Part shown: positions 4,524-59,979 of the stretch, piece after piece
Numbering within the stretch: position 1 is the first letter of the stretch
Layout of the letters: every line of letters begins with the position of its first letter
Assembly (NCBI RefSeq): GCF_026210795.1
Contig: NC_089430.1
Span: 3,596,001-3,660,000 of the forward strand
DNA: 64,000 nt
From: Rhizophagus irregularis
Lineage: Eukaryota
Reading direction: 5' to 3'
The notes under the pieces: model-generated
Database searches by the model: none
Told to the model about the DNA's origin: nothing
Seen by the model: only the letters and a program-made list of their open reading frames with translations
Position numbers and translations under genes: made by a program

Positions 4524-4693
4524 TGTTATGAAATATCTATTCGCAATTTTTCACAGTTGAATACTTTTTAAACTGAAGAGGTTTGTCTCACAATTCCCTT
4601 TTTAATTTAGCTTATTTTTAAGCTATTTAGGCAGGTGTAACTTAAGGAATAGATAATCATTTGTTAAATTTTTTCAGTGCAAAATAAAGAATA

Positions 4694-19330: not shown

Positions 19331-20202
19331 TAAAGCTCCGAACGGGTCGGTTTGGTTCGGTTTTTTTGCGGTTCGGGTAGAACCGAAAACCGAAATGGAA
19401 CCGAACCGGAACCGTCCGGTTCGGTTCGGTTCTATCCGAAATTAAGAAAAATGCGAAAAAATGAATACACGACCATCCAGTGGTCGTACAAGGACGAGCC
19501 ATAGCTCGTTGGAATCCTCTCATCGAGACGCGTCGAATGGTGGTAAAATCAAGTCTCTAGCATCGATAGATCACGAGATAGCACATGGTGAGTGTTTCTT
19601 AAAAAATTTGCATTAAAAAACGATCCATTGATGCTAGAGACATGAATTTACCACCATTCGACGCATCTCGACGAGACGAATCTAATGAGCTATAATTCGT
19701 CTTTTTACAATCACTGGATGGTCATGTATTCATTTTTTCGCATTTTTTTTTAAATTTTCGAACGTCAAAAATTAAAATTCCGATACAAGTGATTAAACGC
19801 CATCTATTGATTACACAAAGACGAATTTTAGCTCATTGGATTCGTCTCACTGAGACGAGTCGAATGGTGGTAAAATGATGTCACTAGCATCGATAGATCG
19901 TTTTCTAATGCGAATTGTTTAAGAAACACTCACCATGGGCTATCTCACGATCTATCGATGATAGAGACTTGATTTTACCACCATTCGACGCTTCTCGATG
20001 AGAGGATTCCAACGAGCTATGTCTCGTCCTTGTACGATCACTGGATAGTCGTATATTCGTTTTTTTGCATTTTTTCTTAATTTCAGATAGAACCGAACCG
20101 AACCGGACGGTTCCAAGTCCAAAACCGAACCGAGAACTGAACCGAATTTTTTGCCGGTTCCGGATCGGTTTCCGGTTCAAACTGGAACCGTTCGGAGCTT
20201 TA
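19331..20202. mobile_element. hAT-type MITE (872 bp) with long internal inverted repeats
   Basis: Perfect 15-bp TIR TAAAGCTCCGAACGG/CCGTTCGGAGCTTTA. 8-bp TSD ATTGTTAA at 19323-19330 and 20203-20210. Subterminal AACCG repeats. Confidence 0.9.
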
Positions 20203-20929: not shown

Positions 20930-21428
20930 TAATCCTAGTATCTGGTTTAATTTCTTACTTATAGCTTTAGGTGTGTTTTCTGGTATATTACTTTATTTTT
21001 AAATTATAGGAATTACATCATCTTACATTTTACTAGGATCCTGCTTACTTATAAGATAGGTCACCCCCAGGTATACATGGCCTGGTAATTCTATAATTTT
21101 GTATAAATACGTAATTCGTAATCCTGGTAATTAATTACCAGATTTTTCAAAAAATACGTAAATACGTAATTATTTACGTATAACGTAATTAACATAAATA
21201 TTATTGGTTAATTTATAAATAATAATTATATATAAATAATTAATAGAAAATCATGCGAAATTATGTTGATTAACATTTAAATTAATAAAGTATTCTAACT
21301 ATAAATAGTAATCTATTTACTAAATAAAAATACTATAAAAAGTAATCATTCGTTCTTTTTTTTAATATTGAACAAAGAATTTATATTTTTTCACGTTATA
21401 GTATACTTCTTTTAAATCTTCTTAAAAT

Positions 21429-24248
21429 ATGGGTGACAGACGTGATAGTAATGATAATCAAGATGCAATTATTGATCAAAATAAAAAAAAACGTGGTCAT
21501 CCAAAAACTGATATTTGGGATTATTTTAAGGAAGGACCAAGAAATAGAGGTCACTGTACGGCAGAGTGTAATTTTTGTGGCTGGAAACAACAAGTAGGGC
21601 AGCCTATCGAAATGCAAGGACATATTGCTTTAAATTGTTTAAAGGTATCACCTGAAATAAAAGCAATTTTTTTGGAAAAAGTAAAGAATAATAGACAACT
21701 TGCATATAAAAATAAAATTATTAAAGTTGATCACAAATCACAATCAGCCAAAGATAGATGAAAAATTTGATTCAACCAAAATTGATCAAGTTAAAGTTGA
21801 AATGGCAAATCGGGCTATTGTAAAATTTTTTGTTTGCTGCGGCATCCCTTTTCATATAATCGAAAACCCTTTTTTTATTGATCTCCTTCGCATATTATGT
21901 CCTGGGTATAATCTACCATGCAGACAAACTCTTTCAGAAGATATGCTTAATGCAGAAATCTCTCATGTAATTACCGAAATAAATTTTAAATTAAGCCACG
22001 AAAAAAATCTTACATTAGGTAATAATAATTATTTTATAGATTTTACATAATTAAATATTATAATTTAATAATAATTTATTAACAGTTAATTTTAATTTCT
22101 TAATATTTAAAGGAGTAGACGGTTGGACTAGTGCTAGTGGACAATCACTTTACGCATTTATTATTATTACTAGTGAAAGAAAAGAATACGTTCATTCAGT
22201 TTAAAATTTATCAAATTATTCATACACGGGAGATTTTTTAGCAAACAAAATAATTGAAGTAATCGAAAATGTTGGTACTACAAAATTTGCAGGAGTAGTA
22301 TCAAATAATGCATCTACAATGGTCAAGGCAAAAAAACTAGTTAATGATCGATATGGATTTATAATGCCAATTCGATGCATTGCACATCATATAAATCTAT
22401 TAACTAACGATATTTGTAAATTAGAGTTTGCTCAATCAATATTGAAAAAATGTATGAAATTAGTTCATTTTTTCAAAGCATCACATCGGGCAGGTGCAGA
22501 ATTGATAAATGAAATAAAAGAAAATATGGTCAAAGGTGGGAAATTGAAAGGATATTGCCAAACAAGATGGATGACTGCATTTGATTGTGTTTCTTCAGTT
22601 TTAAGATGTGAAGAAGCTCTAAAAAATGTTGGTATTTATTAATTATATTTATTTATTTATTTATTTAATTTATTATAATTAATTTATTTTTAATTTTAGA
22701 TAGCAAATAATAATTCAGATTATTTAAAGAGGACCCCGGATATCTAATATAAAGGTCATAATGGATTTTCTTTTACAAAAACACCCCTTTTTGCTGAAAC
22801 TCAAAAAATCGTTTTTTGTAAATATCTCAGCATCCAGTAATTCAATTTTAATGAACTTTTTTTTATTTTGTAGCCCTCATTTAGCTCTACAATTTAAAAA
22901 AAAGTTCATCAAAATTGGACTACTGGATGCCGAGATATTTACAAAAAACGATTTTTTGAGCCCCTGAAAAATGGGCCAATCTGCCGAAAGTGTGACTTAT
23001 GACCTGTTTTGGAGATATCCGGGGTCCTATTTAAAGCAAAATATTAAAGAAATTATAACAAGACGTTTTTTTATGGATGCTGAAGAATTACAATTAATTC
23101 TTAAGCCAATAAAAGAAGCTATCAAATATCTAGAAATGAAAAATGCAACATTAGCAGATTGTTTCTTACAATTAATAAAATTATCTTATTCAATCAAAAA
23201 TTTATCAGAAACTCATACTACTTTCTGACAACAATGTATTAAAGCATTTAATAAAAGGTGGACACAGTTCGATTTTAGGTTATATATGTTAGCCTATTTA
23301 CTTCACCCATTATACCATGGTATGTATTTGATTAAAATAACTTGACTTTTTATTTTATTTTAATCAATTAATTATTAATTATAAATAGGTAAAGGATTCC
23401 GAAATCAAGTATGCCGAAAAGTAGTTTATTGGGCAATCGAAAATATATGGATAAAAATGGACGGTAGAGAAAATTCCAGTTCCAAATTAATCGGACAAAT
23501 TGCTGCTTTTCGTAACAATCTTCCTCCTTATAATGACGAATTTATTCCTAAATATTATACAGTTGAACATTGGTGGAATTACGTAGAACAAGATGAAGGA
23601 GAAGAAAATTTTATCCAACAACTTGCATTAAAAGTATTTTCAATAACTCCACATAATGCAGGATGCGAGAGAATATTTTCAGTAATGGGCTGGTATATAA
23701 ACAAAAGGAGAACTCGGTAACTATTATTATTTTATTATATTATTGCCATAGTTATTAATTTTTTTTGAATTTTTAAGTAATTCCTTTCAATTAGATTGAG
23801 CGTAAATCATTTACAAAACCTTACGAAACTCCACACATACTATGTTTCAAATGCGAAAACTGAATTAAAGTATACTGCTAAAGATATGAATGCTAAAAAT
23901 GATGAAGAGTTTTATCAATTGGTACGAAATGGTATATATCAAAATATTAATGATGAAATTGAAGAGAAAGAATTTGATGGTGAAGATGAAGATTATGATG
24001 ATACAGAAGACGAACTTGTTGATATAGATGAGTACGAAAAATTTGGCTATAAAAATAATGATAATGTTTTACAAAATGAAAATTATTTTAATTTTGTATC
24101 AAGGGAGTTAGTGGAATTATTAAAACTTCAGGAGCCGCAAGTAATTATTGAACCTGTAAATAGTGATCATATTATTGATCACGGTAACAAAAATTTCGAT
24201 ATAGAAGAATTATTAGACCAACAATTTAATGATGATGATAATGTTTAG
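21429..24248 (+). pseudogene. hAT transposase pseudogene (BED finger, RNase H-like DDE core, hATC dimerisation domain)
   Basis: IWDYF..CNFC..H...C BED finger, VDGWTS, RCIAH, TRW and PHNAGCERIFS. Disrupted by a frameshift near 21700, stops at about 22202 and 23226, and a MITE insertion. Confidence 0.9.
22730..23028. mobile_element. MITE (299 bp) inserted in the hAT1 transposase
   Basis: Perfect 16-bp TIR AGGACCCCGGATATCT/AGATATCCGGGGTCCT. TSD ATTTAAAG at 22722-22729 and 23029-23036. Removing it restores NSDYLKQNIKE. Confidence 0.92.
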
Positions 24249-24499
24249 ATAGTTTATACTCTATCGTTGTATATTTTGATTTGTTTTATTTCTTTGTATA
24301 TTTTTTTTCAAAATTTTGAATAAAAGCTTTAACAATTTTGCGTTTAACATTATTTTATTTAATTTATTTTTAACGATCTTATATAATTTTCAATGACTTT
24401 ATTTAATTAACAGTTTTTATTTAAGGCTTAACGATACTTTAATAATATTTAAAGATCTAATTCAATAATGTTAACAATCCATTTTAATTACATGAACTA

Positions 24500-25235
24500 A
24501 AAATTTAGATTGCTGAATATACGCCAATATGAACTACTATGACAGAAGTTCTATTTTCTACAAAAAAAAATAAAAAAAAAGAAACGTTAGTACATTTATT
24601 CAAAGTAAATTCAAAAGAACTCGCCCCTATATACTTACATGTGTCCTAAAATATCTCCAGTAAGCAAAATCTACGAAAAAATAAAAAAATAAACGTTCTT
24701 ACATTTTCTTCAAAGTAAATTTCAAAAGAACCCACCCTCATACACTTACACGTGTCTTAGAAAGCAAAATCTTCAAAAAAAATTAAAAAAAAGAAACGTT
24801 AATACGTTTCTTCTAAGTAAATTTGAAAGAACTCGCCCTCATACACTTATATGTGTCCTAAAATATCTCTAGTAAGCAAAATCTACGAAAAAATAAAAAA
24901 AATAAACGTTCTTACGTTTTCTTCAAAGTGAATTTCAAAAGAATTCACTCTCATATACTTACACGTGTCTTAGAAAGCAAAATCTACAAAAAAAATTAAA
25001 AAAAAGAAACATTAGTACGTTTCTTCAAAATAAAATTCAAAGAACCCACTACGCTTACCCACATTCTAGAAGGTTCCTGGAAACTGAAACTTACAATAAA
25101 ATGAAAAAATGTTAATATATTTTAAAGAAATTTTAAAAATTCAGAAGCAAGCATGTCTTCCACCTACCATTTTTCGAAATTCATACCGCCCTTAAAGAAA
25201 AAAAGAAGAAAGGAACATAAGAGACGTTCCTATAA
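24500..25235 (-). repeat. Tandem intron/micro-exon array inside hAT1, antisense to the transposase
   Basis: Minus-strand units read GTAAGT...branch-point-like motif...(T)nGTAG. Exons alternate between about 32 and 21 nt. Confidence 0.65.
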
Positions 25236-25839
25236 GTTTGAATTAAAAAAATTTTTTTTCGAAAATAATGAATCTGATCGGCCAGATACATTTAGATTAT
25301 TTACATTATTTACGCATATTGTAAATAATTACATCAAACGTAATTATTTATGAGTGCATTTGATTAATTACGAAGTCATAAATAATTACGTATAATGTAA
25401 ATAATTACGTTAATCATAATTAATTACGAAATATGAAATTATTTACGTATTTTGAATTACGAATTACGTTTTTGGCTGATGATTTACCAGGCCATGTATA
25501 CCCCCAGGCCTAAAATAAAAATCATATATAAAATTCTTTGCAGATTCTACTATAAAAGGAAATTTTATGTGTAAAAACTATTAGTAAAGTGCCAATTTTT
25601 TACAGTGACCTTTATTATAAGTAAGCGGGATCCTATTTTACTTTTAATTATAGGCATAGATTCTTATTAATATCACATTCAATAAAATGATATCTGTTTT
25701 CTTCTTTGTTAGCATTGCACCTGGGATAAACAAAATCTTTGTATATATTTGGTTTTCGCTGTAATAGGATAGTACCTATTTTTTTATTTTATTATTATGT
25801 TTACATTCATTAATTTACTCTATTCTATCTATCTAACTA

Positions 25840-27095
25840 CTTGTTGTTAATGGTTTGGAATATTATTCCAGTTGGTTCAATTCCAACAAACAACTTTTTC
25901 TAAAGTTTTTATGCAAATTCTTTCAAAACTATTGTTTGAGAAGTATTATACTAACACCAAACGATTTTGACTTAGTAAAATTGTGAGGTGAAACATTATT
26001 TCGTTCTCTATAGAAAAAAAAGAAGAATGTTTAGTAAACGTTCTTAACAAAAAATATTAAAAAAAAATAAGTTCTGGTACCTTGTGATAATTTCATCTTG
26101 AGAGAATTACTTACAAGAAAAAGAAAAAAGTAACGTTAAAAATGTTATATTTCTTTAATATAATTATACTTCTCTGCTAATTAATTATGTCATATTTCAG
26201 CGAATAGACCAATTCACTATTTATTATAAAATTACTATGAATTAATTACGTTTGTCAAAATACATTACATTTGTTAAAATAAATTTAATTAGTATTTTGT
26301 CATTTTGACGAAAAGTATAAATATAATTAGACACTATACTCTTCCCCATATACTTTACCGGATTCTTCTAAATTTTTAGGAATCCAGTAATCTAAAAAAA
26401 ATGAAAAAAGAAATGTCAATATGTTTCTTTAATACAATTAAATGCCATACACTCCTCCCATATACTTTACTGGATTATTCTAAGTCTAATAATCTGAGAA
26501 AATGAAAAAGAAACGTTAGTATGTTTCTTTAACATAATTGAACGTCATACATCACCCATATACTATACCAGATTCTTCCAAATTTCTAGGAGTCTGGTAA
26601 TCTTAAAAAAATGAAAAAAAAGAAACGTTAATACATTTCTTTAACAATGCTCCATATATCTAAGTCTGATTTATTAAAAAAATATTAAGTATTGCAAAAA
26701 TACTTACTGAATTTAAATACCAAGCTCAATATATCTTACAAAAAAAGAAAAAGAAATATTAGAACATTTCTAATAAAAAAAATTAAGTTTCGTAATTACG
26801 AAACTTACTATATTATGAAACCTACTATTTCGTCCTACAGATTCTACAAAGAAAAAATAAAAAGAACATTAGAAATGTTTTTTGAAAAATAAAAAAAATA
26901 TTGAAAATTTTGAAACTTACTCTCTCTTAGCATCCCAGTCCAGTTATCAAAAGCTGAAGGAAGTCTACAAAAATAAATAAAGAAACATTGGTAACGTTTC
27001 TTTAAAAAAAAATAAAAATAAAAGAATCAAAATTTCAAAATGAAACTTCAAAACCTAACTGAAATCTAATATTCCAGAGAGTATCTACAAAAAAA
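25840..27095 (-). repeat. Intron/micro-exon array, 3' part; continues at 37406-38750 across the CMC-like insertion
   Basis: Repeated plus-strand CTAC/CT..(A)nGAAACGTTAGT..TTTCTT..CATAC/CTTAC units are the reverse complement of GT..CTAAC..(T)nAG introns. Confidence 0.6.
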
Positions 27096-28519: not shown

Positions 28520-29099
28520 TGGAAAAGAAATGAATATGTGAAAAGGGATGAAGTGAATGAAAGTGAATTAAAAGGACAATGTAAAAAATGAAATTGGAGT
28601 GAAAAGATAATGAAAATGAAATAGAAGTGAAGAGATGATGAAAAATGAAATAGGAAATGACGAAAAACAAAATGGAAGTGAAATGGAATGATGTAAAACA
28701 AAATGGAATGATGGAAAATAAAATCGAATGATGGAAAATAAAATGGAATGATGGAAAATAAAATGGAATTGAAGGAGATAATGAAAAAATAAAATGGAAG
28801 TGAAATGGGATGATGAAAACAAAATGGAAAAGAAATGAAATGATGTAAAACAAAATGAAACAATATAAAGCGAATTGAGATGTTAAAAAATAAAGTAGAA
28901 TGTTGCAAAATGATATGAAGGGATGAAAAACGATATGGAGCAATATGGAGTGATAAAAAACAATATGGAGCGATATGGAGTGATGAAAAATGATATGGAG
29001 CGATATGGAGTGATGAAAAATGATGTGGAGCGATATGGAGTGATGAAAAACAATATGGAGTAATATAGAGTAATGAAAAATGATGTGGAACAATATGAA
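28520..29099. repeat. Minisatellite (20-bp AAATGGAATGATGGAAAATA and 30-bp GATATGGAGCGATATGGAGTGATGAAAAAT units), left part
   Basis: Direct tandem repeats that resume at 34531. Confidence 0.85.
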
Positions 29100-29606
29100 T
29101 AAGGTTGCTTGCCGAAACCTGTTTGGCCTAATGCCGAAAGGTAAAACCTCTTATATAGTGCTGAAATGTTGAAATGCCAAAACTGCAAAACCTGTCAAAA
29201 TTGTGAAACTGCCGAAACATACCAAAACTTCAATAATAGGTTTTTCCGTAGTTTCGGCATAGTTGATCATAAGATTTGCATATAGTTACGCCAAGTTACA
29301 CCAATTAATAATATAATTTAGATAATCAAATAATCTACAGATAAAAGATTAAACTTCAATATTTTACCATCGTCTTAGTTCTTTTAAGCTTTATCTAGTG
29401 TTAGAATTTTCATTTCTAACTCCTATATTAATATTATGATATTACACGTTTTTGCAGTTTTTTTTAAGAGGCTTATATTCATTAAAGGAAAATGCGTAAC
29501 ATGCATTTAATAAACCCAATTCTGTCATCTTCTTTAACACTGAACTAAAGTTTCTTTTACTTTCTTCCGTTTTCTTAATAATAATATTAATAATAAACTG
29601 TTTCAA

Positions 29607-31905
29607 ATGACTGATCACATAGAAGATTCACCCATTAAAAAGAAAAATAGAGGAAGTCGGCCACCTAATAGCATTTGGAAAGATATTAATAAAGGAGAAG
29701 CTGTTGGTTCTGACAAATTTGCCGCCTCCTGCAAGTACTGTAAGAATACATGGGCACGCGGTGAAGTTTCAAAGCTCGAAGAGCATCTTTCAAACTATTG
29801 TCCAGATGCGCCAGCAGCAGTTGTTAGAAGGTATATAACTAAAGTAATGGAACAGCAAGATAAGTCCAAGTCATCCAAAAAAAGAAAATACTCTGAAGGT
29901 CAAAGTAACATGGATGATTATCATGATTCAACAGAGCTTAACGAACAAAGATGTACACGAATTAATCGTGCATTAGTTAAATTTTTTATTGCGTGCGGAA
30001 TTGCGTTTAAAGTAGTGGAACATCCCTTTTTCATCAATTTTATAAAATAGCTTAATGCCGGGTATAATATATCAATAAGGGAAGTATTAGTAAATCAACT
30101 ACTTGAACGTGAATTAGCTCAAGTGAACTTCAAAGTTAATTCTGAGCTTGAAAAGGAAACGAATTTAACGTTAGGTTTGTTAAATTAAATAAGCTATCAT
30201 ACGTGATTTTTATTTAATCTTACTTACTATATAATATTAATTTATAATTTAACCTTTGATGGTTGGACGTCTGGTACACATCGTTCAATTTGGAACTTCA
30301 TTGTAATGACTCTGTCACGTAAAGAATATCTTTATCAACTTTCTGATTTGTCTGAAAATTCGCACACTGCAGAATATTTAGTTACGGTAATTGAAAAGGT
30401 TATAGAAGGTATTGGAGAAGATCGAATATGTGCTGTAATTTCCGATAATACGGCCAATGTTCGTAATGCACGAAAAATTATACATGAGAATCATCCAAAG
30501 ATTGAGAATGTGTGATGCGTTGCACATTCTATCAATTTAATTGCATGCGACATTGTCAAGGAGAAGTTTGGAGAACGTTTATTAAAACGTATTAATATTT
30601 TGACAACCTTTTTTAGAAGTTCTCATCAGGCTAATGCAAAACTTGCTCAAATAATTAAAGAAAAAGGAATTAGTGGAGAAGGATTAAAATTATATTGCAA
30701 GACACGCTGGACTACTGCTAGTGAATCCGTAAATTCAGTAATAAATTTGGAATCAGCACTAGAAGAAATGGTCAGCGATCATGATAAAGTGCTAACAAAT
30801 GATAAAATAAAACTAATTATTCAATCGAGAAATTTTTTTCAAATTTACGAGTTCTTGGATTTGTTTTGGATCCTCTAAGAAAAGCAGTACTTTCATTAGA
30901 ATCGAGAAAAGCTACACTTGCAGATTGTTTCCTGAGCTTGGCAAGACTTACAGCTACATTAAAAAAGTTACCCAAATCATTAAATCCTGCATTCCGAAGT
31001 CATTGTATCAAAGTAATAAATGAAAGATTTGATGAGTTCGATGATGATAAGTATATTACTTGTTTTTTTATAGATCCCAGATTTAGAAACGCGCCACTTA
31101 AAAAATGCGACCTCATGAGAATTATCAAATGTGCAGCTTCAATCGGAAAAAATTTAGGTTTTGACCGTTACGAAGCTGAAACTTTATGTGATCAAATACA
31201 GAAATATATTAATGAACAAGAGCCATTTGACCTAGATATCGGTTTTGCTAAAGATAATCCTGTAAATTGGTGGAAATATATTAATACCGAACCAGAACCA
31301 GATGTCCTGCCAAGAATTGCAAGTTATCTATTTGCAATATGTCCTAACTCAGCAACTTGCGAATGTGGATTTTCGACTTTAGGATGGCTATTTCATAAAC
31401 GTCGCTTAAATCTTAATGTGGATAAACTAGAATCCATGTGCAAATTAATTTTGTATTGGAAATCCAATTCAAAAACTGAACTTGGATTTTATGGAATTGA
31501 TCAAAAAAAGAATACTCGTCTTAGTGATGATGAGATCAATATACGTATTGCAGAAGCTTTTGCAGAAGATGACGATGAGGAATATAATGAGGAGCAAGCT
31601 TCTACTCAGAGATTAACTATAAGTGCGAAACAATACCCAAAGACAATTGCCGTGTAGTAATCGAAAGTCTATGGATTGATCAATTTGTTAATTTATCGCA
31701 TAATTCAGTTACTAGTAAAATCGGCGATATTCCAAGAGATATATTGGATGATTCAGATGAAAATAATGCAGAAGATGATGAAGTTGATGATAGTGGTAAT
31801 AACAAGAGACCTGGAGAAGGTGACTATGATTATGATATAGATGATGTATTAGGTATGGATGACAGTGATAATAATGACGATAATTATGATGATAATGAGA
31901 AATGA
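29607..31905 (+). pseudogene. hAT transposase pseudogene
   Basis: BED finger IWKD..CKYC..HL...C, then FDGWTS, ISDN, CVAH, TRW and PNSATCE.GFS, with an acidic tail. Stops at 30048 and 30513; frameshifts near 30840 and 31625. Confidence 0.9.
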
Positions 31906-33562
31906 TAATAATGAGAATTAATTACAATAGTTAATCCAATGAGAATTAATTCTAATATCATGTGATTTAAATAATGATACTATTTAGGAAATAAATGATG
32001 TAATTATGCAGGGCAAAATATTCGCGATCAAAGTCCAGTTAACATATAATTATGCAGGAATTGTAATTTTATATTATATTTTAAACATTGTAATTTAATT
32101 AAGGAATAAGGATAAGCATATTATATTTTAAAAATAGTGCAATTTAATTAAGGAATAAGGATAAACAATTATATTAGAATCAATAAGTTTTAAGGACTTC
32201 GTTAATTAAATTTATTACATTAGATCAATAAATTTTAAGAACTGCGTTGAGATCCCCCAATTCCCTCTGTCATCAATTTACAGAGTTGCCACATCGAACA
32301 GGTATTCTCATGGTCGAACGAATGAATAATCGAACGAATGAACAATTAAACGAACAAGCAAATAATCAACAGCATAATTAACGAACAACATACAATAACA
32401 ATATATAACAACATTTTTGGTTCACAACATAAATAGCGTTAGTAATATAAAACATCAAACGGTATAAAATAAATTTAACTTCTCTAAATTTTTCCCAAAT
32501 TATATCCACTTTTACCTTTAATTTCAAACTTCGATAGCTCTCGCTACAAATTATTACTTTTCAAAAACATATATTTAATTCATCTTAAAATTTTCATTTT
32601 ATTCAATTAAAATTAATTAAGCAAACATTAATTAAAGTTTAGGGCGAACCTATTACCTTTAATTAATATTAAACTTTACTAACAAATAATTAAATGAAAC
32701 TTATATTTTTATTGAGTTCTGTGGATGAGAACTATGGAATTACTTTGAATTCCGCTCTCTATTTATACAAATTTTATGCTACTTTCTATTCTATCTATAT
32801 ATTATCTTTGAACTATCTTTCTAATATGCTATCTATATTTTAAATACGCTATCTTTTAATATGCTATCTTTTATATATGTTCTTTTTAATATGTTATCTT
32901 TTATGTTCCATCTTTATACTATCTTTTTATATTATCTTTTATATTATTTTATGTTCTTTAATCTTTCTGACATTATTTTATATGTTCTTTCAATTCACTT
33001 TATGTGTTTTGCTTATAATCTATCTTTTGTGGCTTATAATTATTCTTTCTAATCGTTCTTATTGTTAAAGATTGCTAAGCCGCAATTGATCGACTCTAAT
33101 TATTCTATTGGTTCTTTGTCAATCATTCGATAAATATTACATCATGTAGATCATTACTCTTCCTAAATGTTTATCCTTTTTCGGCTAATTATTTATCCAT
33201 CTACGTCAATTCATAATTAATTTGTTCGTTCTTAATATTTGGAAATTACATCTGGTGATTGAATTTTATCATCTTTTCATGCTTGATATTTGACCGTTTA
33301 CAGCGTTACAAAAAAAAATTTAGAACTGCGTTAATTAAATTTATTACATTAGAATCAAAACTGTGTTTATTTTGTTACAAATACTTTAATTATGTAGAAT
33401 GTTATTATGTTCATCAGTTCATGTTTTAAACATTATAAGTTATAACGAATTTTAAAATTAGTATAAATATTATGAAATTTGAAGTATATAGGATTTTTTT
33501 TTCGCAATACAAAACCAAATTGTATTTTAATTTTCGTTACGAAAAAATCATAAAAATAAAAA

Positions 33563-34214
33563 ATGGCAGCATTAGTACCTTTTGTTCCACCGCCACCACC
33601 AGTATTCCAATGGACGATTAACGCTGCTAGGCAACTAATCGCAGAGCGAAGAAACTTGCATCAGCAATTCGAAAGAATTGCAAACCGTCATCATGTAAAT
33701 GCATGGACAATAATAGCAAATAGGGTGTTCGTTGGAACGGGATTTGCAGCGACACCCAGGCAGTGCTATACAAAATGAAATGCCCTCAAACGAGGTTATG
33801 AAAACCTCAGTAGGATAATAAATAATAATGATGATGACATTCCTATTATAAGACCAAATAGTTTCGATAGAGCGTGTTTTGCTGATATGAACGATAAATT
33901 CTGGTTACAAACCGGTAATTATTATTAATTATTATTTTAAATTAATTTTATTTAGGCAATTCATTCAATTCATTAATATTTTTATTGGATTTTAGATCTG
34001 TTTAGACGAGAGTATCGACGGCAGCTATGCTGCGCATGATCGACGTCGATATGAATATAGATTGCAAAGGGAAAGAAGAAGGTCGCGATCTAGGTCATGA
34101 TCAAGAAGTAGATCAAGAAGTAGAGATAGAAGACGAGATAGAAGTAGCGATAGAAGACGGGACAGAAGTAGAGATAGAAGAAGAGGTAGAAGCAGGTCCT
34201 CACATAGAAGATAA
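33563..34214 (+). pseudogene. Myb/SANT(MADF)-like domain plus RS/RD-rich tail, carried inside hAT2
   Basis: WTINAARQLI...WTIIANRV...TPRQCYTK*NALKRGY, an intron at 33915-33995, then RERRRSRSRS*SRSRSRSRDRRRDRS.. Two stops and one frameshift. Confidence 0.7.
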
Positions 34215-34530
34215 AAATATTAAAATTTAATTTTTATTATATTTTTAATCGTATATTTTATTAGTTTAATATTAAATATTATAAAATAAATATTTACATA
34301 CAAAAAATCATATTGTCTTTATTCTTATAAATTGTTTAAATGCCAAAACTCTAATTAAATCATATAGAAAGTATTGCCGAAACGCTGAAACAATTTCGGC
34401 AAGTTACAGCAGTTTCGTGATTTTGATAGGTTTCGCAGTTTCGGCATTTCTTGATGATTTTGCAAAACTAGTTTCGGCAGTTTCGCGTATGTCATTCTGC
34501 CAAAACCTCTAGTTTTGGCAAGCAACCTTA

Positions 34531-34860
34531 AATATGGAATGATGAAAAATGATATGGAGTGATATGGAGTAATGAAAAAGAGTAATGAAAAATGATATGG
34601 AGCGATGTGGAGTGATGAAAATGATATGGAGCAATGTGGAGTGATAAAAAACGATATGGAGCTATGTGGAGTGATGAAAAATGATATGGAGCGATATAGA
34701 GTGATGAAAAATGATATGGAGCAATATGAAGTAATGAAAAATGATATGGAGCGATGTGGAGTGATGAAAATGATATGGAGCGATGTGGAGTGATAAAAAA
34801 TGATATGAAGCCATGTGAAGTGATGAAAAATGATATGGAAGCAAAAGGGACGATGATAAA
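34531..34860. repeat. 30-bp minisatellite, right part
   Basis: Same GATATGGAG..GATGAAAAAT unit as 28920-29099. Confidence 0.85.
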
Positions 34861-35459
34861 TGAAAAGGATAATTAAAAACAAAATAAGAACAAAGGGAAT
34901 CGTGAGAAAAATAAAATGGAGGCGAAGGGAATAATGAAATAATAAAAATAAAAGGAGCGAAAAAAATAATAGAAAATAAATGAAAAAAGAGTGAAATGGA
35001 TATAGAAAATGAAAAGGGAATAAAGTGGATGATAGAAAATAAAAGAAACTGTTAGTATCATTTTCAATAAAGAAAACAATAAAATAGCAAAATACTAGTA
35101 ATAAAAGTGAGTCTTATCTTAAACTCTTTGAAGTTATTTGAAATTGTTGTTTTCTGAAAAACAAGTTAACAAGTTAGCATAAAAGAAAAAAAACATTAAA
35201 CTAGCAAAGTAATAAGAAAATAAAAAAATTTTACCTTAAGAAATTTCAGAAAAAGCTGATCATTTTGGAAATAATACTACAAGAAAGCAAAAAACAAAAT
35301 GTGCTACGTGTTTGTGTAATATGAAATCATCTGGTAAATTTCACTGGGATAAATTTAAAAATTTTGATCAAGGTGAAATTCACCAGAGGTGAATGTAAAA
35401 TTAATCTGTTAGGAAGTTTTGGCAACGCGAAACTGCAACTGAAATCGACACTGCTATAT

Positions 35460-36590
35460 TCGGTTTATCATCATATAAAAAAAAATTCATTTTTTTTTAT
35501 ATTTTTTTATATTTTTTTTTTGTAGGTCGGACTCTTATTTTTTGTAAAATATCGGACCCTTGGAGACCAGGACGAACCGTACCTACACAATAAAGGTAAT
35601 GTGGGAGAAGGGGCTGGGGTTACTATTTTGTAATTAAGAAACATTTTTAATGTTTCTTTCTTTTTTTTGTAAAACTAGGACGCCAGACTCTTGAAAATAA
35701 ACCCGGACTTGGATAATGTAAGGAATAGGGAATGGGAAATTTTTTCTTTAATATTAAAGAAATGTACTAACGTTTCTTTCTTTATTTTTTTTTGTAGGAC
35801 TAGGACGCCAGATTCTTGAAAACGAACCTGAACTTGGATAACGTAAGGAATAGCAGGGAATGGGAAATTTTTTCTTTAATATTAAAGAAACGTACTAACG
35901 TTTCTTTCTTTATTTTTTTTGTAGGACTAGGACGCCAGACTCTTGAAAATGAACCTGGACTTGGATAATGTAAGGAATAGGAAATGGGGAATTTTTTCTT
36001 TAATATTAAAGAAACGTACTAACGTTTTTTTCTTTATTTTTTTTGTAGGATTAGGATGCTGGACTCTTGGAAACAAATTAAACCCGGACTTTGAATGTAA
36101 GGAATAGGAAATGGGAAATTTTTTCTTTAATATTAAAGAAACGTACTAACGTTTTTTTCTTTATTTTTTTTGTAGGATTAGGACACCAGACTCTTGAAAA
36201 CAAATTGAACCTGGACTTTGAATGTAAGAAATGAGGGAAGGGAAGAGGGGTATTTTGTAATTATGAAACGTTTTTAACGCTTCTTTCCTTTTTCTTTTGT
36301 AGGATGCCAGACTCTTACAAATCTGAACTTATGCAGCAAAGGTACTGGGAAAAGGGGAATTCTTTTGATATTAAAGATGGAAATGTACTAATGTTTCTTT
36401 TTTTTGATCTTTGTGGGTTTTAGCTTCCTGGAATGACATTTTGAATGGGCAAACATTTCTTTAAGGGTGGCGTTTGAAATTGACTTTGAGAAACGTTTTA
36501 ATGTTTCTTTTTTTTTTCTATTAAGTTTTAATAGTTGTTTATTGGAATCGAACTAACTGGAACATTGTTCCAAACCATTAACAACAAATT
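35460..36590 (+). repeat. Tandem intron/micro-exon array (putative spliced non-coding or decayed repetitive-peptide transcript)
   Basis: Introns 35718-35797, 35843-35924, 35970-36048 and 36097-36175 each read GTAAG..TACTAAC..(T)nGTAG; intron 36224-36302 has TTTTAAC at the branch point. Exons of 45, 45, 48 and 48 nt. Confidence 0.75.
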
Positions 36591-37405
36591 AATGTAAAAT
36601 AATAAATGTATTCAAAAATAAAATGTATTTAAAATAAATATAAATAATTTCATAAATTGTATACATAAATAACATACTATTGGAATTTTTTTTCATGTAA
36701 AAATTTCAGGTTACTTGATTACCTGAAGTGACCTGAATTAACCTGAATATTTTTGGGTCAGACAGGTTAGGTCAGGTTAGAATAGGTTACCCGATCTGAC
36801 TTGACCCGTTTAGAGTTCTCACTTACTCCAAGGAGTCTGTCAACCTAAAAAAACAAGAGAAAGAAATGTTAGTAACATTTCTTTAATATTAAAATAATCA
36901 CCTTTCCAACTTACATTCTAAAGTTTGAAATAGTCCAAGGAGTCCAGAAACCTAAAAAAAATAGAGAATGAAACGTTAGTAACATTTCTTTAATATTAAA
37001 AATATCACCCTTTCCAACTTACATTCCAAAGCCCGAGTTCATTCAAAGAGTCTGGCAACTTAAAAAAATAGAGGTAAAAATATAGAATTTTTTTTATTAA
37101 AATAGATTGATCGACCGGTATGACGGTTAATTAAATTTAGATTATCAAATTCTAATAGAATATCGATGTCGATATATCAAAATGTATCATACAAATATTA
37201 GTACCTGATATATATTAGAAATATATCGGTGACATATTGGGCAATATATATCTGATTATATAGGTGCCCAAAATACCAGTGTATATCGGTGACATATTGG
37301 GTACCCAATGTGTATCTGATATATGTAAATACCCGATATATATCTGATTAGTCACTGATATATAGGTGCCTGATATATATCCGATAGCATAGATTTTGAC
37401 CAGTA

Positions 37406-38750
37406 AAAAAAAGAAACATTAATATAACGTTTCTTACAAAAAAAAGAATAAAAAAAAAATTGTTTTGCAACATTTAAACTTACTGTTTCATTTTAAAGCA
37501 CTAAGCCAAACACTTGAAACTACAAAAAAAGAGAAAAATATTAATATAACATTTTTCAAAGAAAAAAAAATTTTTTTTAAGTTTCGTAACGTAACTAAAT
37601 GTTGTGAAACTCACCATCATTTCAAATTTCACAAGGCCGAAATACTTGAACCTACAAAAAAAAGAGAGAAACATTAAAATAATATTTCTTACAAAAAAAA
37701 ATAAATAAAAAATAAGTTTTGCATTGTGAAACTTACCATTCGAGATTTACTATTTCAAAGCTTTCCACTTGAACTTACAAAAAAAAGAGAAAAATATCAG
37801 AATAACGTTTTTCAAACTCTCAAAGAAAAAAAATTGTAAGTTTTGCAACATGTTGCAAAACTTACCATTCATTTTATTGAAAAATAAAAAAAGATATTTT
37901 GAAGTATACTTGAAGTATACCTTCAAAATGTCGAGTTTAATTTTGTCTGTCTAAGGAGCCATCCAAAAGAAATTGAATCTAAAAGAAAAAAAATGAAACA
38001 TTAATAAACATTTCATTGAAAAAAAACAAAAAAATATTTCAAAGTATACTCCAAGTATATTTTTAAAATATCAAGTTTCATCCGTCTAAAGAGCCATCCA
38101 AAGAACACAGGTCGAAATGCTAAAAATCAGCAAAAAAAATGGCGTGAAAAGCAGTGGCTATTCTTGGCTATTCTTGGCTATTCTTGACTATTCTTAGCTA
38201 TTTTTAGCTATTTGCGAATTAACCTATACTATTTGTAAATAGTTTATATAAATTTGCGAATAGTTTATGCAATTCTAGCCATTTTTTTTGCCTGTTTTTG
38301 ATCATTCGACGTGTGGAAGTCGAACTTAAAAAAGCAAAAAAAAAATGAAGCGTTAATAAATATTTCGTTAAAAAAAAAACTAAAAAAGAAAGACATTTTG
38401 AAGTATATATACCTTCAAAATGTCTTATTGATTTTTGTCTGTCCAAGAAGTCAAGAAGCCGTCTAAAGAAGCCAAATCTAAAAGAAAAAAAATGAAACAT
38501 TAATAAACGTTTTATTGGTCAAAAAAACAAAAAAATAATTATTTTGAAGTATACTTAAAGTATACCTTTGAAATATTGAGTTTCATCTTCAAGGAGCTAC
38601 CTAGCTGAATCTAAAATGAAGCATTAATAAATGTTTCGCTAGTTAAAAAAATAAAAAAATAAATTATTTCGAAGAAGTATATCTTTGAAATATCGAATTC
38701 TGAACCTATACCTTCAGCGTTTTGGACTTAAAAAATAAAAAAAATATTAG
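37406..38750 (-). repeat. Intron/micro-exon array, 5' part
   Basis: Repeated CTAC(A)nGAAACATTAAT..CTTAC/CTCAC and CT(A)n..GAAACATTAATAAAC..GTATAC units. Confidence 0.55.
38106..38315. mobile_element. CMC-like MITE (CAC...GTG ends, 3-bp TSD)
   Basis: About 38-bp imperfect TIR CACAGGTCGAAATG../..CATTCGACGTGTG. GAA on both flanks. Internal GGCTATTCTT repeats. Confidence 0.75.
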
Positions 38751-38909
38751 TGTTAACTAGAGCCGCAACCCGACCTGACAAATGTATCAAAGACCTGACG
38801 GGACGACCTGAAATATTCAGGTTGGAGACATCAAATTCATGATTCGATGAAGGTATCAAGATGATCGATACCGACCCAACCCGTCGATCTGATATATATT
38901 TGGGCAAAT

Positions 38910-39860
38910 AAATTAAAAAATGCTAAAACTAATAATAATTCCAGCATTTTTACATATAAAATCGAAAAAAATGCCAAAACTATCAGTTTTGGCATTTTTA
39001 TATATAAAATCAAAAAGAAAAATGCTGGAACTAATGATTCTGGCATTTTTACATATACAATTGAAAAAAAATGCCAAAACTATTAAAATCAAAAAGAAAA
39101 ATGCCAGAATTAATTATTCCAGTGCTTTTACATGTAAAATAGTGTTTTGCACGAATCAATTCATGATACGGTGTGATCCTAATTATTCCCGAATAATAAA
39201 AACGTATTTTGTGAATAACTTTTGATCTAACAGTCTGATTTTAACAATCTTTTTTTATTTTGATCAGGGCAATGAGACTTATCGATTTTAAAAAAAATCA
39301 TCGAAATTGGATCACTAGATCCTGAGATAATAACTTTTGAAGGTCAAATCAAGTCTGAATTGAGTCCAAATTGAATCGAATTTTAGAGGAGAAATTTGAT
39401 TTGTACAGAACACTAATGTAAAATCAAAAAAACTGCCAGAACTAATTATTCTGGCACTTTTACATGTAAAATCAAAAAAAATGCTGTAAACTATCAGTTT
39501 CAGCATTTTTACATATAAAATCAAAAAAAAAATGTCAGAACTAATTATTCTAGTTGCTTTTACATGTAAAATCAAAAAAAAATGCCAAAACTAACAGTTT
39601 CAGCATTTTTACATGTAAAATCAAAAAGAAAAATGCCAGAACTAATTATTTCAGCGGTTTTACATATAAAATCAAAAAAAAAATGCTGAAACTAATTATT
39701 CCAGCGTTTTTACATGTAAAATCAAAAAAAAATACTAGAACTATCAGTTTTGGCATTTTTACATGTAAAATCAAAAGGAAAAATGCTAGAACTAATTATT
39801 CTGGCGCTTTTACATGTAAAATAAAAAAAAATGCCAAAACTATCAGTTTCAGACTTCTTT
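38910..39860. repeat. Minisatellite of about 40/80 bp built from palindromes
   Basis: Units contain TTTTACATGTAAAA and the hairpin TGCCAGAACTAATTATTCTGGCA. Confidence 0.85.
39140..39415. mobile_element. hAT-type MITE inserted in the minisatellite
   Basis: TIR TAGTGTTTTGCAC/GTACAGAACACTA. 8-bp TSD ATGTAAAA at 39132-39139 and 39416-39423. Confidence 0.85.
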
Positions 39861-41089
39861 TCTAATTGATCAAAATCCATTTTGCACAATAACTCACCAT
39901 CCAGTAATCATAGAAATCCAATTAATAGCTCATTGGAATCATCTCGTCAAGATAGTTCGAATGGTACTAAAATCATCCTTCTAGAATTGATAGATAGAGA
40001 GTTGATTTTACCAATTTTTCAAAAAATAACTCGTCATCTATCAATGCTAAAAGGATAATTTTAGTACCATTCAAACCGTCTCAACAAAACGATTCTAACG
40101 AGCTATTGATTGGGTTTCTACGATCACTGGATGGTGAGTTATTACGCAAAACAGATTCTGACCAATCAGAAAAAAACTGAAAAATGGAACTGAACTGAAC
40201 CGTTTAGAGCTTTATATAATACTAAAGATTATATATTGAATGTTTAAACATTTTATTTAAAATATTTAAAAGGTTAGAAAATACTGAATATTTAGATTAT
40301 TATATTATTTTTATAATTGCTAATTAGCCAGAACAAGTAAATATAAAAAGACTTATAATATTAAGAATTAATATTAAAAGAATAGTATCTGAAATTTCAA
40401 AATTAAGTTCAATTTCTTTAATTAGACCACTTCATATTTCTTTAAGTAGTAGAGAAATTTTATTTCAAACGTATTGTTTTTTTTTAAAAAATATTATATT
40501 ATGATTTATTTGAAAATAAAAAAGTATTGTCTCAAAAACTAAAACAAACTGTAATTAATCTTATTTTAGATTTAATATTTAATAGTTAGAAAAATATTTG
40601 AGATATTATTATATATTGTTTTGAAAATTTTAAAAATATAGAATATAGAATGATGATTTATTTGTTAAATAATTTTATATCACTTACTTTAAATATACAT
40701 GCAGTACTTTTTAGAAGTAAATACTTTGAGGCAAAATTAATTATAAAATTTAAAATTAATTATAGAATACAGAATTTTATTTTCAAACTTTAAAAAAAAA
40801 CTCTTTTCCACTCTCTTCATTTCATATAAAAATTGTGTTTTTTTTAAAAAAAAATGTTTAATTTAATACTCTTTACTTATATTGAAACAATATAATTTTT
40901 ATTAAATATTTCTCTGCCTACTACTTCTACACATTTTTACTTAGAAAAACAATAATTTTTATCATGATTTTCAGGAGTTTTTCCTTTATTTTTTTACTAT
41001 TCTTTTTAAAAATACCCACCTATTTAACTATTACTTACATATAATTAAATATTAATTGCATTCATTTTTACTTACTGTTGATTTAGCAT

Positions 41090-44097: not shown

Positions 44098-46821
44098 ATG
44101 ATACAACTTAGACTACCAGACAATACGAAAATAACTTCGAAAATTTTGTCCCTTTTAAATAATATTTCTTATTCACTTCTTTTATGTTTAATATGTTTTC
44201 TTTTTTTTTGCGAAATTGCATCATTTGGAGTAAATGCTCAACAAGCTGATTCAGATGGAACTATTGCTATACCCATAATGCAATGGATAGACATGAGACC
44301 TAACTTGAGAGGTACATCGCCGCCTGGACTAAAAGATTTCGCTTTTGGATACTCTAAAGACAGTAACTTGGCAATAATTTTCGGCGGAACGTAAGTATTA
44401 TTTTTTAGCAATAACTTAAAGGGAGTTATCGTAGCTCTTAATATAGAGTGATTTGTGGCTTAGTAAATGTCTTGACGTCATTTAATTTGAATTCTATTTA
44501 TTTATAGAACGCCGACTGGGAGTAAATCTGGAGCAACCTATTTATTAGATTTAACTGACAATACATGGAAAACACTATCTGATTTTGGATTTCTTAATCC
44601 ACAAACTCCGGAAGCAAGATCAAATATGATTTTTGGAGTTGATAAGGCTTCATCTTATCGAAATGCATTTATTATTGCTTGTGGTCAGGGACCCGGAGAA
44701 GTGCTTTATAATGATATTTGGGCATTTGATTTTAGTTATAAACAATGGACAAAAGTTGAAGCGGTTAGTGGTGAAATACCGCCTTTAATGTATGGTAGTA
44801 TTGGTGGAATTGATACGACGTTAGCGACCCCATCTCAAACTGTATTAACAAATACATTATGGTCAAGTCATGGAACAAATGGAACTCATTTTTTTACTGA
44901 TCTTTACGCTCTTGTTACAACTGGGAACCTTTCTCCTAATTTGAAAACTTTATCAGCTACTTGGTATAAAGTTCCAGTTGTAAGTGGTTCAGATATTCCT
45001 GCAGGGCGTTCTTTTGTTGCAGGTACAATACTACCAAACAAAAGATTGGCATTATATGGGGGATGCGACAAACTTGAAGGGAAATGCGCAACATCAGATA
45101 CTTATACATTGAATTTTGGAAGTAATTATACCAATGGGCAAGTAGAAACCGCAACACCTTTATGGAGTAAAAAAAATTCTTGTTTAGGTGCGAGATCAGG
45201 AGCTGCCATGGTTATGAATAGTAATCCTGCTATAACATATCCAAATCAAGCAATAGTTTATGGTGGAAGTTCATCTGATGGAAAAGCTGTTGGGCCAGCT
45301 GGTGAAGTTGGTGTTTTTGATGCCGATTTGGGAAATTGGGTTCGTGTTCTTCCGCAAAAAGATCAGATTTCGGGATATCCACCTCAAAGAATAGGAGCTC
45401 AAATGGCTCCTATTCCATCGGCGATTGGTGTTCCTGGATTTGCGGCCACAGATATTTTATTGTTTGGGGGAGAAAGTATGGATGGAAATAATTTAAATGA
45501 TATATGGATATTGAGATTAAATAATAATTCTACTTCGGGAGCTACAGCTAGTGCAGCCAAGTTACCTATTGAGTTCCTTGAATGTGTTCCAGAACCTAAA
45601 AATGGTACAGGCGGTACAGTAGTCAAACCTGGTGGCACTACGGGAACTAACACAGGAACAAATAGTGGTTCAAATAGCGATAGTAGTGATTCCAATGATT
45701 TCGGCAAATCAACGACACCGAAAAGCCACGTGACTTTTTCAACAATTAGTTTTGCATTTTTACCATTAGCGGCATCAGTTATAAGATTCGGATATGGATC
45801 AAATCAGAAATGGGCAATAGCGGGATTATATACAATATTCATAGTAACTTCATATGCAACAGCGTTTTATGGATTTGCTATTGCATTTCAAGACAAACAA
45901 AAACTATCCGAGCATTTTAATACATCTCATGGATTAATAGGATTAGTATTATTAGTATTATTGTATATACTTGTACCTTTAATGGCGATTATTTCTTTAT
46001 TTGCAAGTAAAAAATATGAATCAGATTCATTCGCAAATGATGATTCAATTAATGATAAAGGAGGCGTCGGATCTAAATTAACAGATTTTTTTAATTGGCG
46101 AAATTCCGAATCAAATTCAAAAACGGCTAAATCATTTGAAGTTTCTAGACCAGGAAATCGATTGGTACCAGGAGGAGAAACTCCATCCCAATCGCCTCCG
46201 TTAAAATCTTCGGATAATTGGATGGAAAAAAGAAAGAGCGTTACGAATCATTCTTCTCAAGGGTCAAGAAATAATAGCTTACAATTCATCCCAAATTCAA
46301 GAAGAACATCACAAAGTACAGCTGTGTCTAGAAGCGGATTACAAACATCAACCACATCGTCTGATACATCAACTGCAATTATTATAAGACGAATTCATCA
46401 CATATTTGCACAACTTGTTTTAATTTCAACGGTAATATATATTGGAATATCATTAATTAAAACAAGAGTTGTAGACTCTTTAACTTTTTACATATTTATT
46501 GGATTTATGATGATTATTTATTTAATTTGGATTATTGCTGCTCGGTACGGATATCCAAAAGGTAGAAATAGCTTACTTGTATTATTTATGCACAAGGTTG
46601 CTTGTGGTAAAGGTGAAATTAATGAAACGAAACAATATGACTTTGAAGAAAATTACAGAAATGGCAGAGATGGTCCAGCACCATCTTCTAATAGAATGAG
46701 AATTGAAGATGATGAAATGGATGAAGAAGCTGAACAAGCCCAATTAGAACAAGATATGCACAATAGAGAAGTTGTTGTTATGACTATACCTAAAAGAAGA
46801 TTAACTGTTGTAAATGCGTAA
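44098..46821 (+). CDS. Kelch-repeat membrane protein with a C-terminal cytochrome b561-like region (2 exons)
   Basis: Exons 44098-44390 and 44508-46821 join in frame (FGGTTPTG). N-terminal hydrophobic signal. Kelch GG motifs (LYGG, VYGG, LLFGG..LNDIWIL). TM helices with SHVTF, HFNTSHGLIGL and RIHHIF. Confidence 0.85.
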
Positions 46822-56771: not shown

Positions 56772-57841
56772 GATCACTGGCTGACGAGTTATTCAACAAA
56801 ATGTTAAACATCAGCATTATAATATTTCTTGATTTACGTTTACTGCGCCATTTAACATTTTGCTAGATTTCTCAGTACCTAGTGATTATAAAAAGACGAT
56901 TTATAGCTCGTTGGAATCGCCTCGTCGAGACGAATCGAATGGTGGTAAGCTCATCTCTCTGTGATCAATATTGACGGAGTTATTACTTAAAAACCATTTA
57001 ATATTTTTTAATTTCAGAAATTGATCTAGTGATTGGATTTCGATGTATCTTATACCATTAGATTCGTCTCATCAAGACGAATCGAATGGCGGTAAGATCA
57101 TCTCTCTACGATTAATATTGGCAGAGTTATTACACAAAAACCATTAATATTTTTTTAATTTCGGAAATTAATCTAGTGATTGGATTTCGACGTATTTTAT
57201 ACCATTAGAACCGTCTCATCATGACGAATCGAATGGCGGTAAGATCATCTCTCTACGATTAATATTGGCGAAGTTATGATACAATAAAGTTTTAAGTATA
57301 ATTCTGGCTAAAATTATGTTAATTTTTGGCCGGAATTATGATATACAAATATAAGAAATTTTTTATATAGTCACATCTCTTTATAATCACCAAATATTAT
57401 GCGTTTCTGTAATAGTATAGTTTTTCTTTACTTAATTTTATTTTGTTTAGATTTCTTTACTTGTATGAATCGTGAAGCTAGTTCTTTTTATTTTTTGTTT
57501 AATTTTCTATATTTTGTAATATTGTTCGATTTGTTTATTGTACTTTTCGTTTTAAAATTTATAATAAAAGATAAAGTCATCAGACTGTTTGCTCATAATC
57601 ACCAAATATGGAGGATCATCGCAACTCTTTCCTGAATTTTTGAAAATACTAATAAAAATTTATTTTTGAAATTTTCGTTCAAAAATTTCTAAGTGCTCGT
57701 ACAAATACTAACATTTCCCCAGTTGCTTTCCTCTTTGCTGAGCTTTATACTATAACAATACCTCTAGCTCTTTCTGTTATTAACCCGGATATTCCACCGC
57801 CACCGCGTCCTGACACTTCTGCTCCGTCTGGAGACCGACCT

Positions 57842-59876: not shown

Positions 59877-59979
59877 ACACCAATCTATATCGGGTGTACC
59901 ACAGGGATTTCACCCCCTAATAGTGCGATACCAAATTTTAATAGTCCCAATAATCCTTCTTCTCCTTCTTCCCCTCTTA

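Follow-up and report, generated by a model that had tools for sequence, protein, structure and literature searches.

Intron arrays on transposons of Rhizophagus irregularis and a conserved 52-nt element antisense to a predicted tRNA mimic

A nest of DNA transposons with arrays of introns and micro-exons

Between 21 and 40 kb, the window (i.e. the whole 64,000-nt stretch of Rhizophagus irregularis DNA analysed here) consists of a nest of DNA transposons. Arrays of tandemly repeated introns and micro-exons occur in this region, two of them next to a copy of a 52-nt element. The features are as follows (TSD, target-site duplication):

21072..25500, plus strand: hAT1, with a terminal inverted repeat, a perfect 8-bp TSD and a broken hAT transposase
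24558..25191, minus strand: array C, within hAT1 and convergent with the transposase; no adjoining element copy found
25843..25894, plus strand: copy B of the 52-nt element (putative tRNA mimic); minimum-energy fold a three-way junction, z -2.0; covariance model 77.5 bits
25895..27090, minus strand: array B, a decayed intron/micro-exon array ending in the complement of element copy B
29100..34530, plus strand: hAT2, with an 8-bp TSD (one mismatch), a broken transposase and a Myb/SANT-like ORF
35526..35717, plus strand: decayed units upstream of the array A core (exon, 77-nt intron at 35596-35672, 45-nt exon at 35673-35717)
35718..36302, plus strand: core of array A, five consensus introns of 79-82 nt and four micro-exons of 45, 45, 48 and 48 nt; branch point in a palindromic hairpin
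35718-35797 (80 nt), 35843-35924 (82), 35970-36048 (79), 36097-36175 (79) and 36224-36302 (79), plus strand: introns of array A
36303..36533, plus strand: 3' part of array A (39-nt exon, weak intron at 36342-36423, short exon, decayed last intron)
36534..36585, minus strand: copy A of the 52-nt element, with a predicted tRNA-like fold on the minus strand and its complement in the predicted last exon of array A; covariance model 71 bits
36601..36606, plus strand: AATAAA, a candidate poly(A) signal 16 nt past the element
36845..37059, minus strand: array D, introns of 70-71 nt and an exon of 37 nt; no element copy of its own found
37433..38711, minus strand: array E, decayed, with several donors in or beside hairpins; no element copy of its own found

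The earlier note had centred on array A and reported further arrays at 24.5-25.2, 25.9-27.1, 36.8-37.1 and 37.4-38.75 kb, always in a transposon context. All of these arrays are present, and all lie on the minus strand. As for their context, the array at 24.5-25.2 kb is enclosed by the inverted repeat and TSD of hAT1, which with its transposase qualifies as a hAT element, but no pair of terminal inverted repeats was found around array A (35.5-36.6 kb). The insertion site of hAT2 is a purine-rich repeat upstream of array A, and purine-rich tandem repeats extend over 28550-29100 and 34531-35050. The second gene of hAT2 (33560-34230) gives a weak match to a Myb/SANT-like domain (E 0.0015); a second gene of this kind is more typical of Harbinger elements.

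Besides, the window contains related palindromic, MITE-like repeats at 19447-20074, 39855-40176 and 56914-57284, one of which splits the flank of a LINE region. A broken LINE-like retroelement, with ORF1-like, endonuclease-like and reverse-transcriptase-like pieces as judged by eye, covers 57656-63716, and an ORF at 44491-46818 shares 96% identity with an R. irregularis cluster and 87% with R. clarus.

Splice signals and coding potential of the array units

Array A has a tandem period of ~127 with 4.4 copies (TRF) and exons of 45, 45, 48, 48 and 39 nt. The hallmarks of spliceosomal introns, namely a GT donor, a branch point, a pyrimidine tract, an AG acceptor and a host-like length, are found in the arrays. 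Five high-scoring introns lie within 35600-36400, compared with a mean of 0.0 and a maximum of 0 in 200 local shuffles, and the branch-point motif is matched 12 times in the window at up to 3 mismatches, versus 0 times in 100 dinucleotide shuffles. The tandem architecture proposed earlier is thus confirmed, and so is the impression that its splice signals are closer to consensus than those of housekeeping genes: a GTAAG donor is present in 5/5 array A introns versus 7/34 housekeeping introns, and CTAAC in 4/5 versus 0/34, where the 34 housekeeping introns are script predictions rather than RNA-verified. Outside the core, the units have decayed. The 77-nt intron upstream lacks the G of its acceptor AG (35670-35672), the donor of the last intron, near 36449, is lost, and the G of the last acceptor AG is at the same time the first base of the 52-nt element.

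Spliced as predicted, array A would yield a 282-nt product with 9, 9 and 7 stops in the three frames, and the 45-nt exon at 35798-35842 indeed has stops in all three, as had been noticed before. It had also been cautioned that array A might be a decayed gene for a repetitive peptide (RLGRQTLEN...). This explanation would fit with all five array A exons being multiples of three in length, and the stops could stem from C-to-T decay. A few family arrays likewise contain long stop-free stretches: those of L041, L018, L012 and L027 were matched by at most 3% of shuffles (ten family arrays tested; shuffling bases controls only weakly for tandem exons), and the predicted spliced product of L041 has 133 stop-free codons and an ATG-initiated ORF of 106 aa (0/200 shuffles as long). 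However, every unit of array A carries a stop in the LGRQ frame, inside the exon in the three 45-nt exons and at the junction for the 48-nt exons, and the three 45-nt exons differ at 7 sites, just 2 of which vary synonymously. Family-wide, multiples of three account for only 22 of 91 exons in related arrays, which is no excess, and the related array D has an exon of 37 nt. Frame-preserving exons, an open frame and synonymous bias, as expected of a protein-coding micro-exon gene, were not found in these comparisons, and the peptide explanation is largely refuted; we regard it as highly improbable.

Comparing the introns with the rest of the unit, as suggested earlier, revealed the introns to be the more conserved part. 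Within array A, the introns resemble one another at 93-99% and the exons at 67-91%; when arrays A and C are compared, these values drop to 78-81% and 44-52%, respectively, with low complexity inflating intron identity in both comparisons. Judged by sequence, the array units are non-coding, and what is kept are the intron signals, not the exons.

The 52-nt element: predicted fold, conservation and spread

Arrays A and B both end in the same block, the 52-nt element. On the strand opposite the introns, it is predicted to fold into a three-way junction made up of a 6-bp acceptor stem, a 7-nt linker containing GG, one short hairpin and a T-arm whose 5-bp stem carries a canonical T-loop. The acceptor side would stack on the T-arm (6 bp, A·A and 5 bp, with a T-loop of 7 nt), as it does in mascRNA and menRNA, the tRNA mimics of MALAT1 and MEN-beta. 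The D region consists only of the 7-nt unpaired linker, in place of a small D stem-loop of 10-11 nt. The GG of the linker is invariant in an alignment of 34 sequences, in which it was fixed by the search pattern, and did not vary in unfiltered reads and contigs either; it would serve a tertiary elbow contact. Copy A has two private stem mutations. A tRNA gene can be discounted: ARAGORN found 0 genes, the hairpin loop varies between 4 and 10 nt and there is no four-arm cloverleaf with a 7-nt anticodon loop. Rfam returned no match at the element in the window stretch or in the 13 of 54 metagenome loci scanned. The idea that the shared 58-nt block is a coding last exon was ruled out, as its copies are bounded exactly by the stems and vary by loop indels.

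The mean column identity of the element is 84% among 34 distinct sequences. Deviations from pairing on the tRNA-like strand comprise 15 G·U, 2 A·C and 5 other mismatches in these sequences; counting each distinct pair type once leaves a G·U bias of 7 vs 2 (p = 0.09). Hairpin pair 4 occurs as A-T (17), G-C (9), G·T (4) or other (4), and pair 2 shows one compensatory change. True compensatory change is confined to these two hairpin pairs, while the acceptor and T stems are nearly invariant, partly as they were fixed by the search pattern. Reads and contigs not filtered by the pattern yielded 13 variant rows, in which the T-loop varies only at the purine equivalent to position 57 of the standard tRNA numbering, the linker and acceptor stem are free of variants, and of 6 variants in stems, 5 are G·U on the tRNA-like strand. 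Based on the G·U bias, the tRNA-like strand would be the folding strand, with the reservation that strand-biased C deamination could produce part to much of this bias.

To what extent the element occurs elsewhere was assessed by scanning metagenome data with its pattern, which gave 56 loci, of which L009 and L055 were dropped as chance matches before all counts. This left 55 copies in 54 loci, which fall into 33 flank clusters with otherwise unrelated flanks. The pattern was absent from viral contigs, GTDB genomes and phages, as was the intron motif from viral contigs, and a covariance model search of the window and the 54 loci added no further copies. The association with introns is oriented: at least two predicted introns are located within 1 kb upstream on the complementary strand in 22/33 clusters versus 1/33 on the other strand (110 versus 5 introns counted). 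The other 11 of 33 clusters have fewer than two predicted introns upstream, and in L015, L017, L021, L050, L052 and L056 purine-rich repeats are found where other loci have the intron array. In 7/33 clusters, an acceptor AG immediately precedes the first base of the element, and 5 of these also have a donor 2 nt past the element's end, such that the complement would constitute an exon of 51-54 nt; in 7 more of the 33, as by sequence in copy A of the window, the AG shares the first base of the element. In 28/33 clusters, an AATAAA or ATTAAA is present no more than 300 nt further on along the same strand, an uncontrolled count in AT-rich DNA.

The neighbours of the element belong to different transposon types. 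They include hAT (L006), an rva_4 integrase (L021), Tet_JBP (L020, L038) and, in L014, a glomeromycete protein that gave a lead to a RAG1-like transposase. L014, L023 and L046 share a 622-aa ORF from a large glomeromycete family that has no Pfam match and is RAG1/Transib-like by its Atlas features; the L018 ORF gave no usable Atlas match. In L020 and L038, TET/JBP dioxygenase ORFs (484-2010 and 3611-4906, minus strand) lie directly downstream of array and element on the same strand, with the closest R. irregularis protein being 65% identical. L038 has a 15-intron unit with two element copies, which ends in AATAAA repeats ahead of the TET ORF. Conversely, L012 and L041 are non-autonomous elements with little beyond 14 and 21 introns, respectively, and the 52-nt element. 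Homology stops sharply between L003 and L041 and between L014 and L023, with differing flanks, and these elements must therefore be mobile. The element end in L014, L023 and L046 is 100% identical despite different flanks, which suggests that the RAG1-like family moved recently. We are highly confident in the descriptive core of these findings, that is, a non-coding intron array plus a conserved structured element common to several transposon types.

The earlier note had proposed that splicing itself may be the function of the arrays, by evading or triggering silencing or by releasing intron RNAs. This would make the 52-nt element a passenger, in line with its absence from arrays C, D and E and with the conservation of introns over exons within and between arrays. 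However, the element is far more conserved than any intron and persists in families with purine-rich repeats in place of introns. The proposal is thus incomplete, overlooking the most conserved part, which is antisense to the predicted tRNA mimic and often an exact micro-exon; splicing alone strikes us as decidedly unlikely.

Another explanation starts from the T-loop, which is also a B-box and perfect in the T-arm of nearly all copies. The element might be a miniature RNA polymerase III gene or a TFIIIC-binding site (SINE-head-like or insulator) on transposons. As part of the same explanation, it would drive an antisense A-rich RNA through the array or shield the element from heterochromatin, with the spliced RNA as the antisense partner. 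The same T-arm string is present in a tRNA-Tyr (2 of 22 viral loci), and strand-biased change from C to T would be in keeping with a transcribed tRNA-like strand. On the other hand, there is no canonical A-box, and the D-loop remnant is just 19-20 nt from the B-box, judged against the usual spacing of Pol III boxes. A conserved terminator is lacking as well, the first TTTT being more than 50 nt away or absent in 24/33 clusters (up to 400 nt examined). Besides, a DNA site would need neither a covarying hairpin nor ends that coincide with splice sites. Taken together, we consider a Pol III or TFIIIC role somewhat unlikely.

Heads of tRNA-derived SINEs combine tRNA-like sequence containing a B-box with subsequent A-rich or tandem-repeat sequence, and the element resembles them in its internal B-box and in the A-rich or tandem-repeat sequence that follows on the tRNA-like strand. 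Unlike a SINE, it moves inside inverted-repeat DNA transposons, its flanks are unrelated across the 33 clusters, its fold is kept and its complement is a defined exon. It has an A-box remnant only and no body, tail or target-site duplication of its own, and the mobility boundaries are the ends of the larger element 300-520 nt away. The element thus qualifies neither as a tRNA gene nor as a SINE or coding gene. SINE families have been reported in R. irregularis (PMC11075540, in part).

The closest structural relatives are mascRNA and menRNA. In the portion of PMC11693755 covered here, mascRNA is divided into a 15-nt anticodon-like stem-loop, a 17-nt T stem-loop and two D-loop Gs, and the element agrees with it in these sizes. 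The predicted fold of the element shares with mascRNA and menRNA the acceptor stem, the reduced D region with two Gs, the short anticodon-like stem-loop stacked on a 17-nt T stem-loop without linker residues, and the embedding in a longer RNA (PMC11693755, in part). As far as that portion goes, it differs in its length of 52 nt versus 57-58 nt, in having no D-stem and an acceptor of 6 bp plus A·A, and in its lack of a conserved upstream triple-helix block. Moreover, mascRNA and menRNA derive from the sense 3' end of Pol II lncRNAs, whereas the element is antisense to the intron-bearing strand (the 22/33 vs 1/33 clusters above) and a multi-copy cargo of fungal DNA transposons. It is mascRNA-like in its modelled shape and falls outside that group by its D-stem and orientation.

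RNA reads, hairpins and a tentative model

Raw RNA runs labelled as the same species were mapped to positions 35000-38900 and to the consensus element alone. Most reads fitted the former region only partly (1182 of 1267 in X20, 1251 of 1378 in X21). The best-supported loose read ends led from the intron 3' motif into different exons, which implies that this motif is common to a larger family and that intron-containing forms of it are present. The GT-AG junctions expected for array A were not among the best 15 of 40 joints, in a decayed copy whose repeated 45-nt exons are hard to place, and the reads contained intron sequence. Regarding the earlier claim that these transposons encode heavily spliced non-coding RNAs, their non-coding nature, transposon carriage and strong splice signals hold up, but a junction read is missing from these joints.

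The consensus element was covered by 158 poly(A) reads (X21), 303 reads of a run of uncertain RNA status (X23) and 30 contigs taken as DNA (X16). The covering reads continue past both ends, with one upstream flank class dominating (64 and 199 reads), and the two mate directions are similarly frequent in these libraries, which carry no strand. Molecule ends, as RNase P/RNase Z cleavage and CCA addition of a mascRNA-type mimic would leave, did not pile up at the element in the 150-nt reads, and a 52-nt product would be lost from such libraries. The element is thus present in poly(A) RNA inside longer molecules, to which genomic DNA could contribute given its multiple copies; that the arrays are spliced and the element functional, we infer. 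An X1 read end that looked spliced was discarded upon finding the same flank in X16 contigs. A second X1 contig end matches by eye, at 22 of 30 letters, the L038 exon preceding intron and element, and a genomic exon would look alike. Seven short read-end motifs had no convincing match in the metagenome loci.

Hairpins are a recurrent feature of the splice signals. In 65/126 family introns and 10/26 array introns of the window, the branch-point region contains a perfect stem of 7 bp or more, versus 1/34 host introns and 1.7% of shuffles. At the donor, stems are present in 48/126 family introns versus 5/34 host introns, and in 7/26 introns of the window arrays, which is not significant; related introns were included in these counts, which are not independent. 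With half of the family branch points in perfect hairpins, a consensus sequence need not mean efficient splicing. These hairpins could slow splicing or reflect palindrome formation at the level of DNA.

As to the donors, a 14-bp perfect inverted repeat at 37826-37868 pairs a donor of array E with an internal complement, and similar donor hairpins are common in L041, L012 and L053.

Could the arrays then be palindromic DNA repeats of transposon interiors, intron-like and rarely spliced, and the element a DNA-level signal? Such repeats would bind proteins or have arisen by tandem duplication and template switching. The branch-point palindromes agree with this, as do the intron-containing reads without array A junctions among the best joints. 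Likewise, L012 has a ~1.1 kb tandem array of the branch-point palindrome alone (600-1720), apparently inside one long first intron of this non-autonomous element. Yet donor, branch point, pyrimidine tract and acceptor keep their order and one strand across unrelated transposons, the intron spacing is kept (median 78 nt; host 74.5), the ends of the element fall on splice sites and, with the reservations made above, poly(A)-type motifs follow on the same strand in most clusters. On balance, we deem this explanation unlikely.

The reading we favour, to which we assign a probability of roughly 40%, is that array A is a decayed copy of a spliced non-coding RNA gene carried by glomeromycete DNA transposons, whose payload, a 52-nt exon antisense to a predicted tRNA mimic, would blunt host RNA silencing. 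Tandem duplication of intron plus micro-exon units built the array, as its sequence shows, and the units are non-coding and retain intron signals rather than exons. RNA polymerase II would transcribe, splice and polyadenylate the array into an RNA resembling host mRNA, consistent with the element in poly(A) reads. The complementary strand would then be made as RNA, most likely by the host RNA-dependent RNA polymerase (RdRP) starting at the nearby 3' end, alternatively through convergent transcription, and would adopt the predicted tRNA mimic, if the G·U bias identifies the folding strand correctly. By analogy with known mimics, RNase P and RNase Z would clip it, so that the antisense strand is cut, long double-stranded RNA is limited and a ~52-nt RNA is released. 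In a broader version, which we find doubtful, DNA transposons of unrelated superfamilies in arbuscular mycorrhizal fungi have an interchangeable RNA cassette in common. This cassette would be a non-coding transcript of 5-20 introns that carries a tRNA mimic in reverse complement, and it would become a substrate for tRNA-processing enzymes only once its antisense strand is made. It would act as a counter-silencing device of the transposons, by which RNase P/Z are directed against double-stranded RNA made by the RdRP.

Links between transposon RNA, splicing and transposon control have been described in other fungi. In Blumeria hordei, according to the part of PMC10648671 covered here, non-coding and partly spliced transposon RNAs are tied to transposon regulation. 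These resemble the present case in that non-coding, here predicted to be spliced, RNA arises from fungal transposons; they differ in being antisense to retrotransposon genes, and tandem micro-exon arrays or a shared structured element are not described in that part (PMC10648671). In Cryptococcus, inefficient splicing or a stalled spliceosome routes transposon RNA via SCANR to the RdRP/siRNA pathway (PMC5851062, in part). Intron quality in transposon RNA would thus be linked to RdRP-dependent silencing in both systems, but SCANR defends the host against transposons whose introns are poorly spliced, whereas the transposons here carry many consensus introns with hairpin-held branch points.

Our literature search retrieved no paper describing the arrays or the 52-nt element; it covered articles without their supplements, and the curated TE library of PMC11075540 may list the element as SINE or unknown. 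The sections of PMC8647823 and PMC11075540 covered make no mention of introns or splicing, those of PMC5640933 none of irregularis or Glomus, and those of PMC10234402 concern gene models only. The system of array and element is real, wider than first reported and apparently undescribed. Unclassified repeats make up about a quarter of the R. irregularis genome (PMC8647823, in part); for some of them, the architecture is now defined, and the 52 nt offer a handle for searches and assays. If the favoured reading is true, tRNA mimics of the mascRNA type would occur in fungi and on transposons as well, in an antisense orientation that we did not find described. The persistence of DNA transposons in a fungus with RNAi and methylation would then become directly testable, including elements with TET/JBP genes beside the cassette.

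Two further observations were made in the metagenome and viral data. Array exons in metagenome loci contain 103 DRACH-type 5-mers versus 53 in shuffles. Among the 22 viral-contig matches to the T-arm string, 19 share a conserved non-tRNA sequence that ends in it and in which ARAGORN detected no gene (L057-L069, L072, L073, L075-L078), possibly a phage T-loop RNA.
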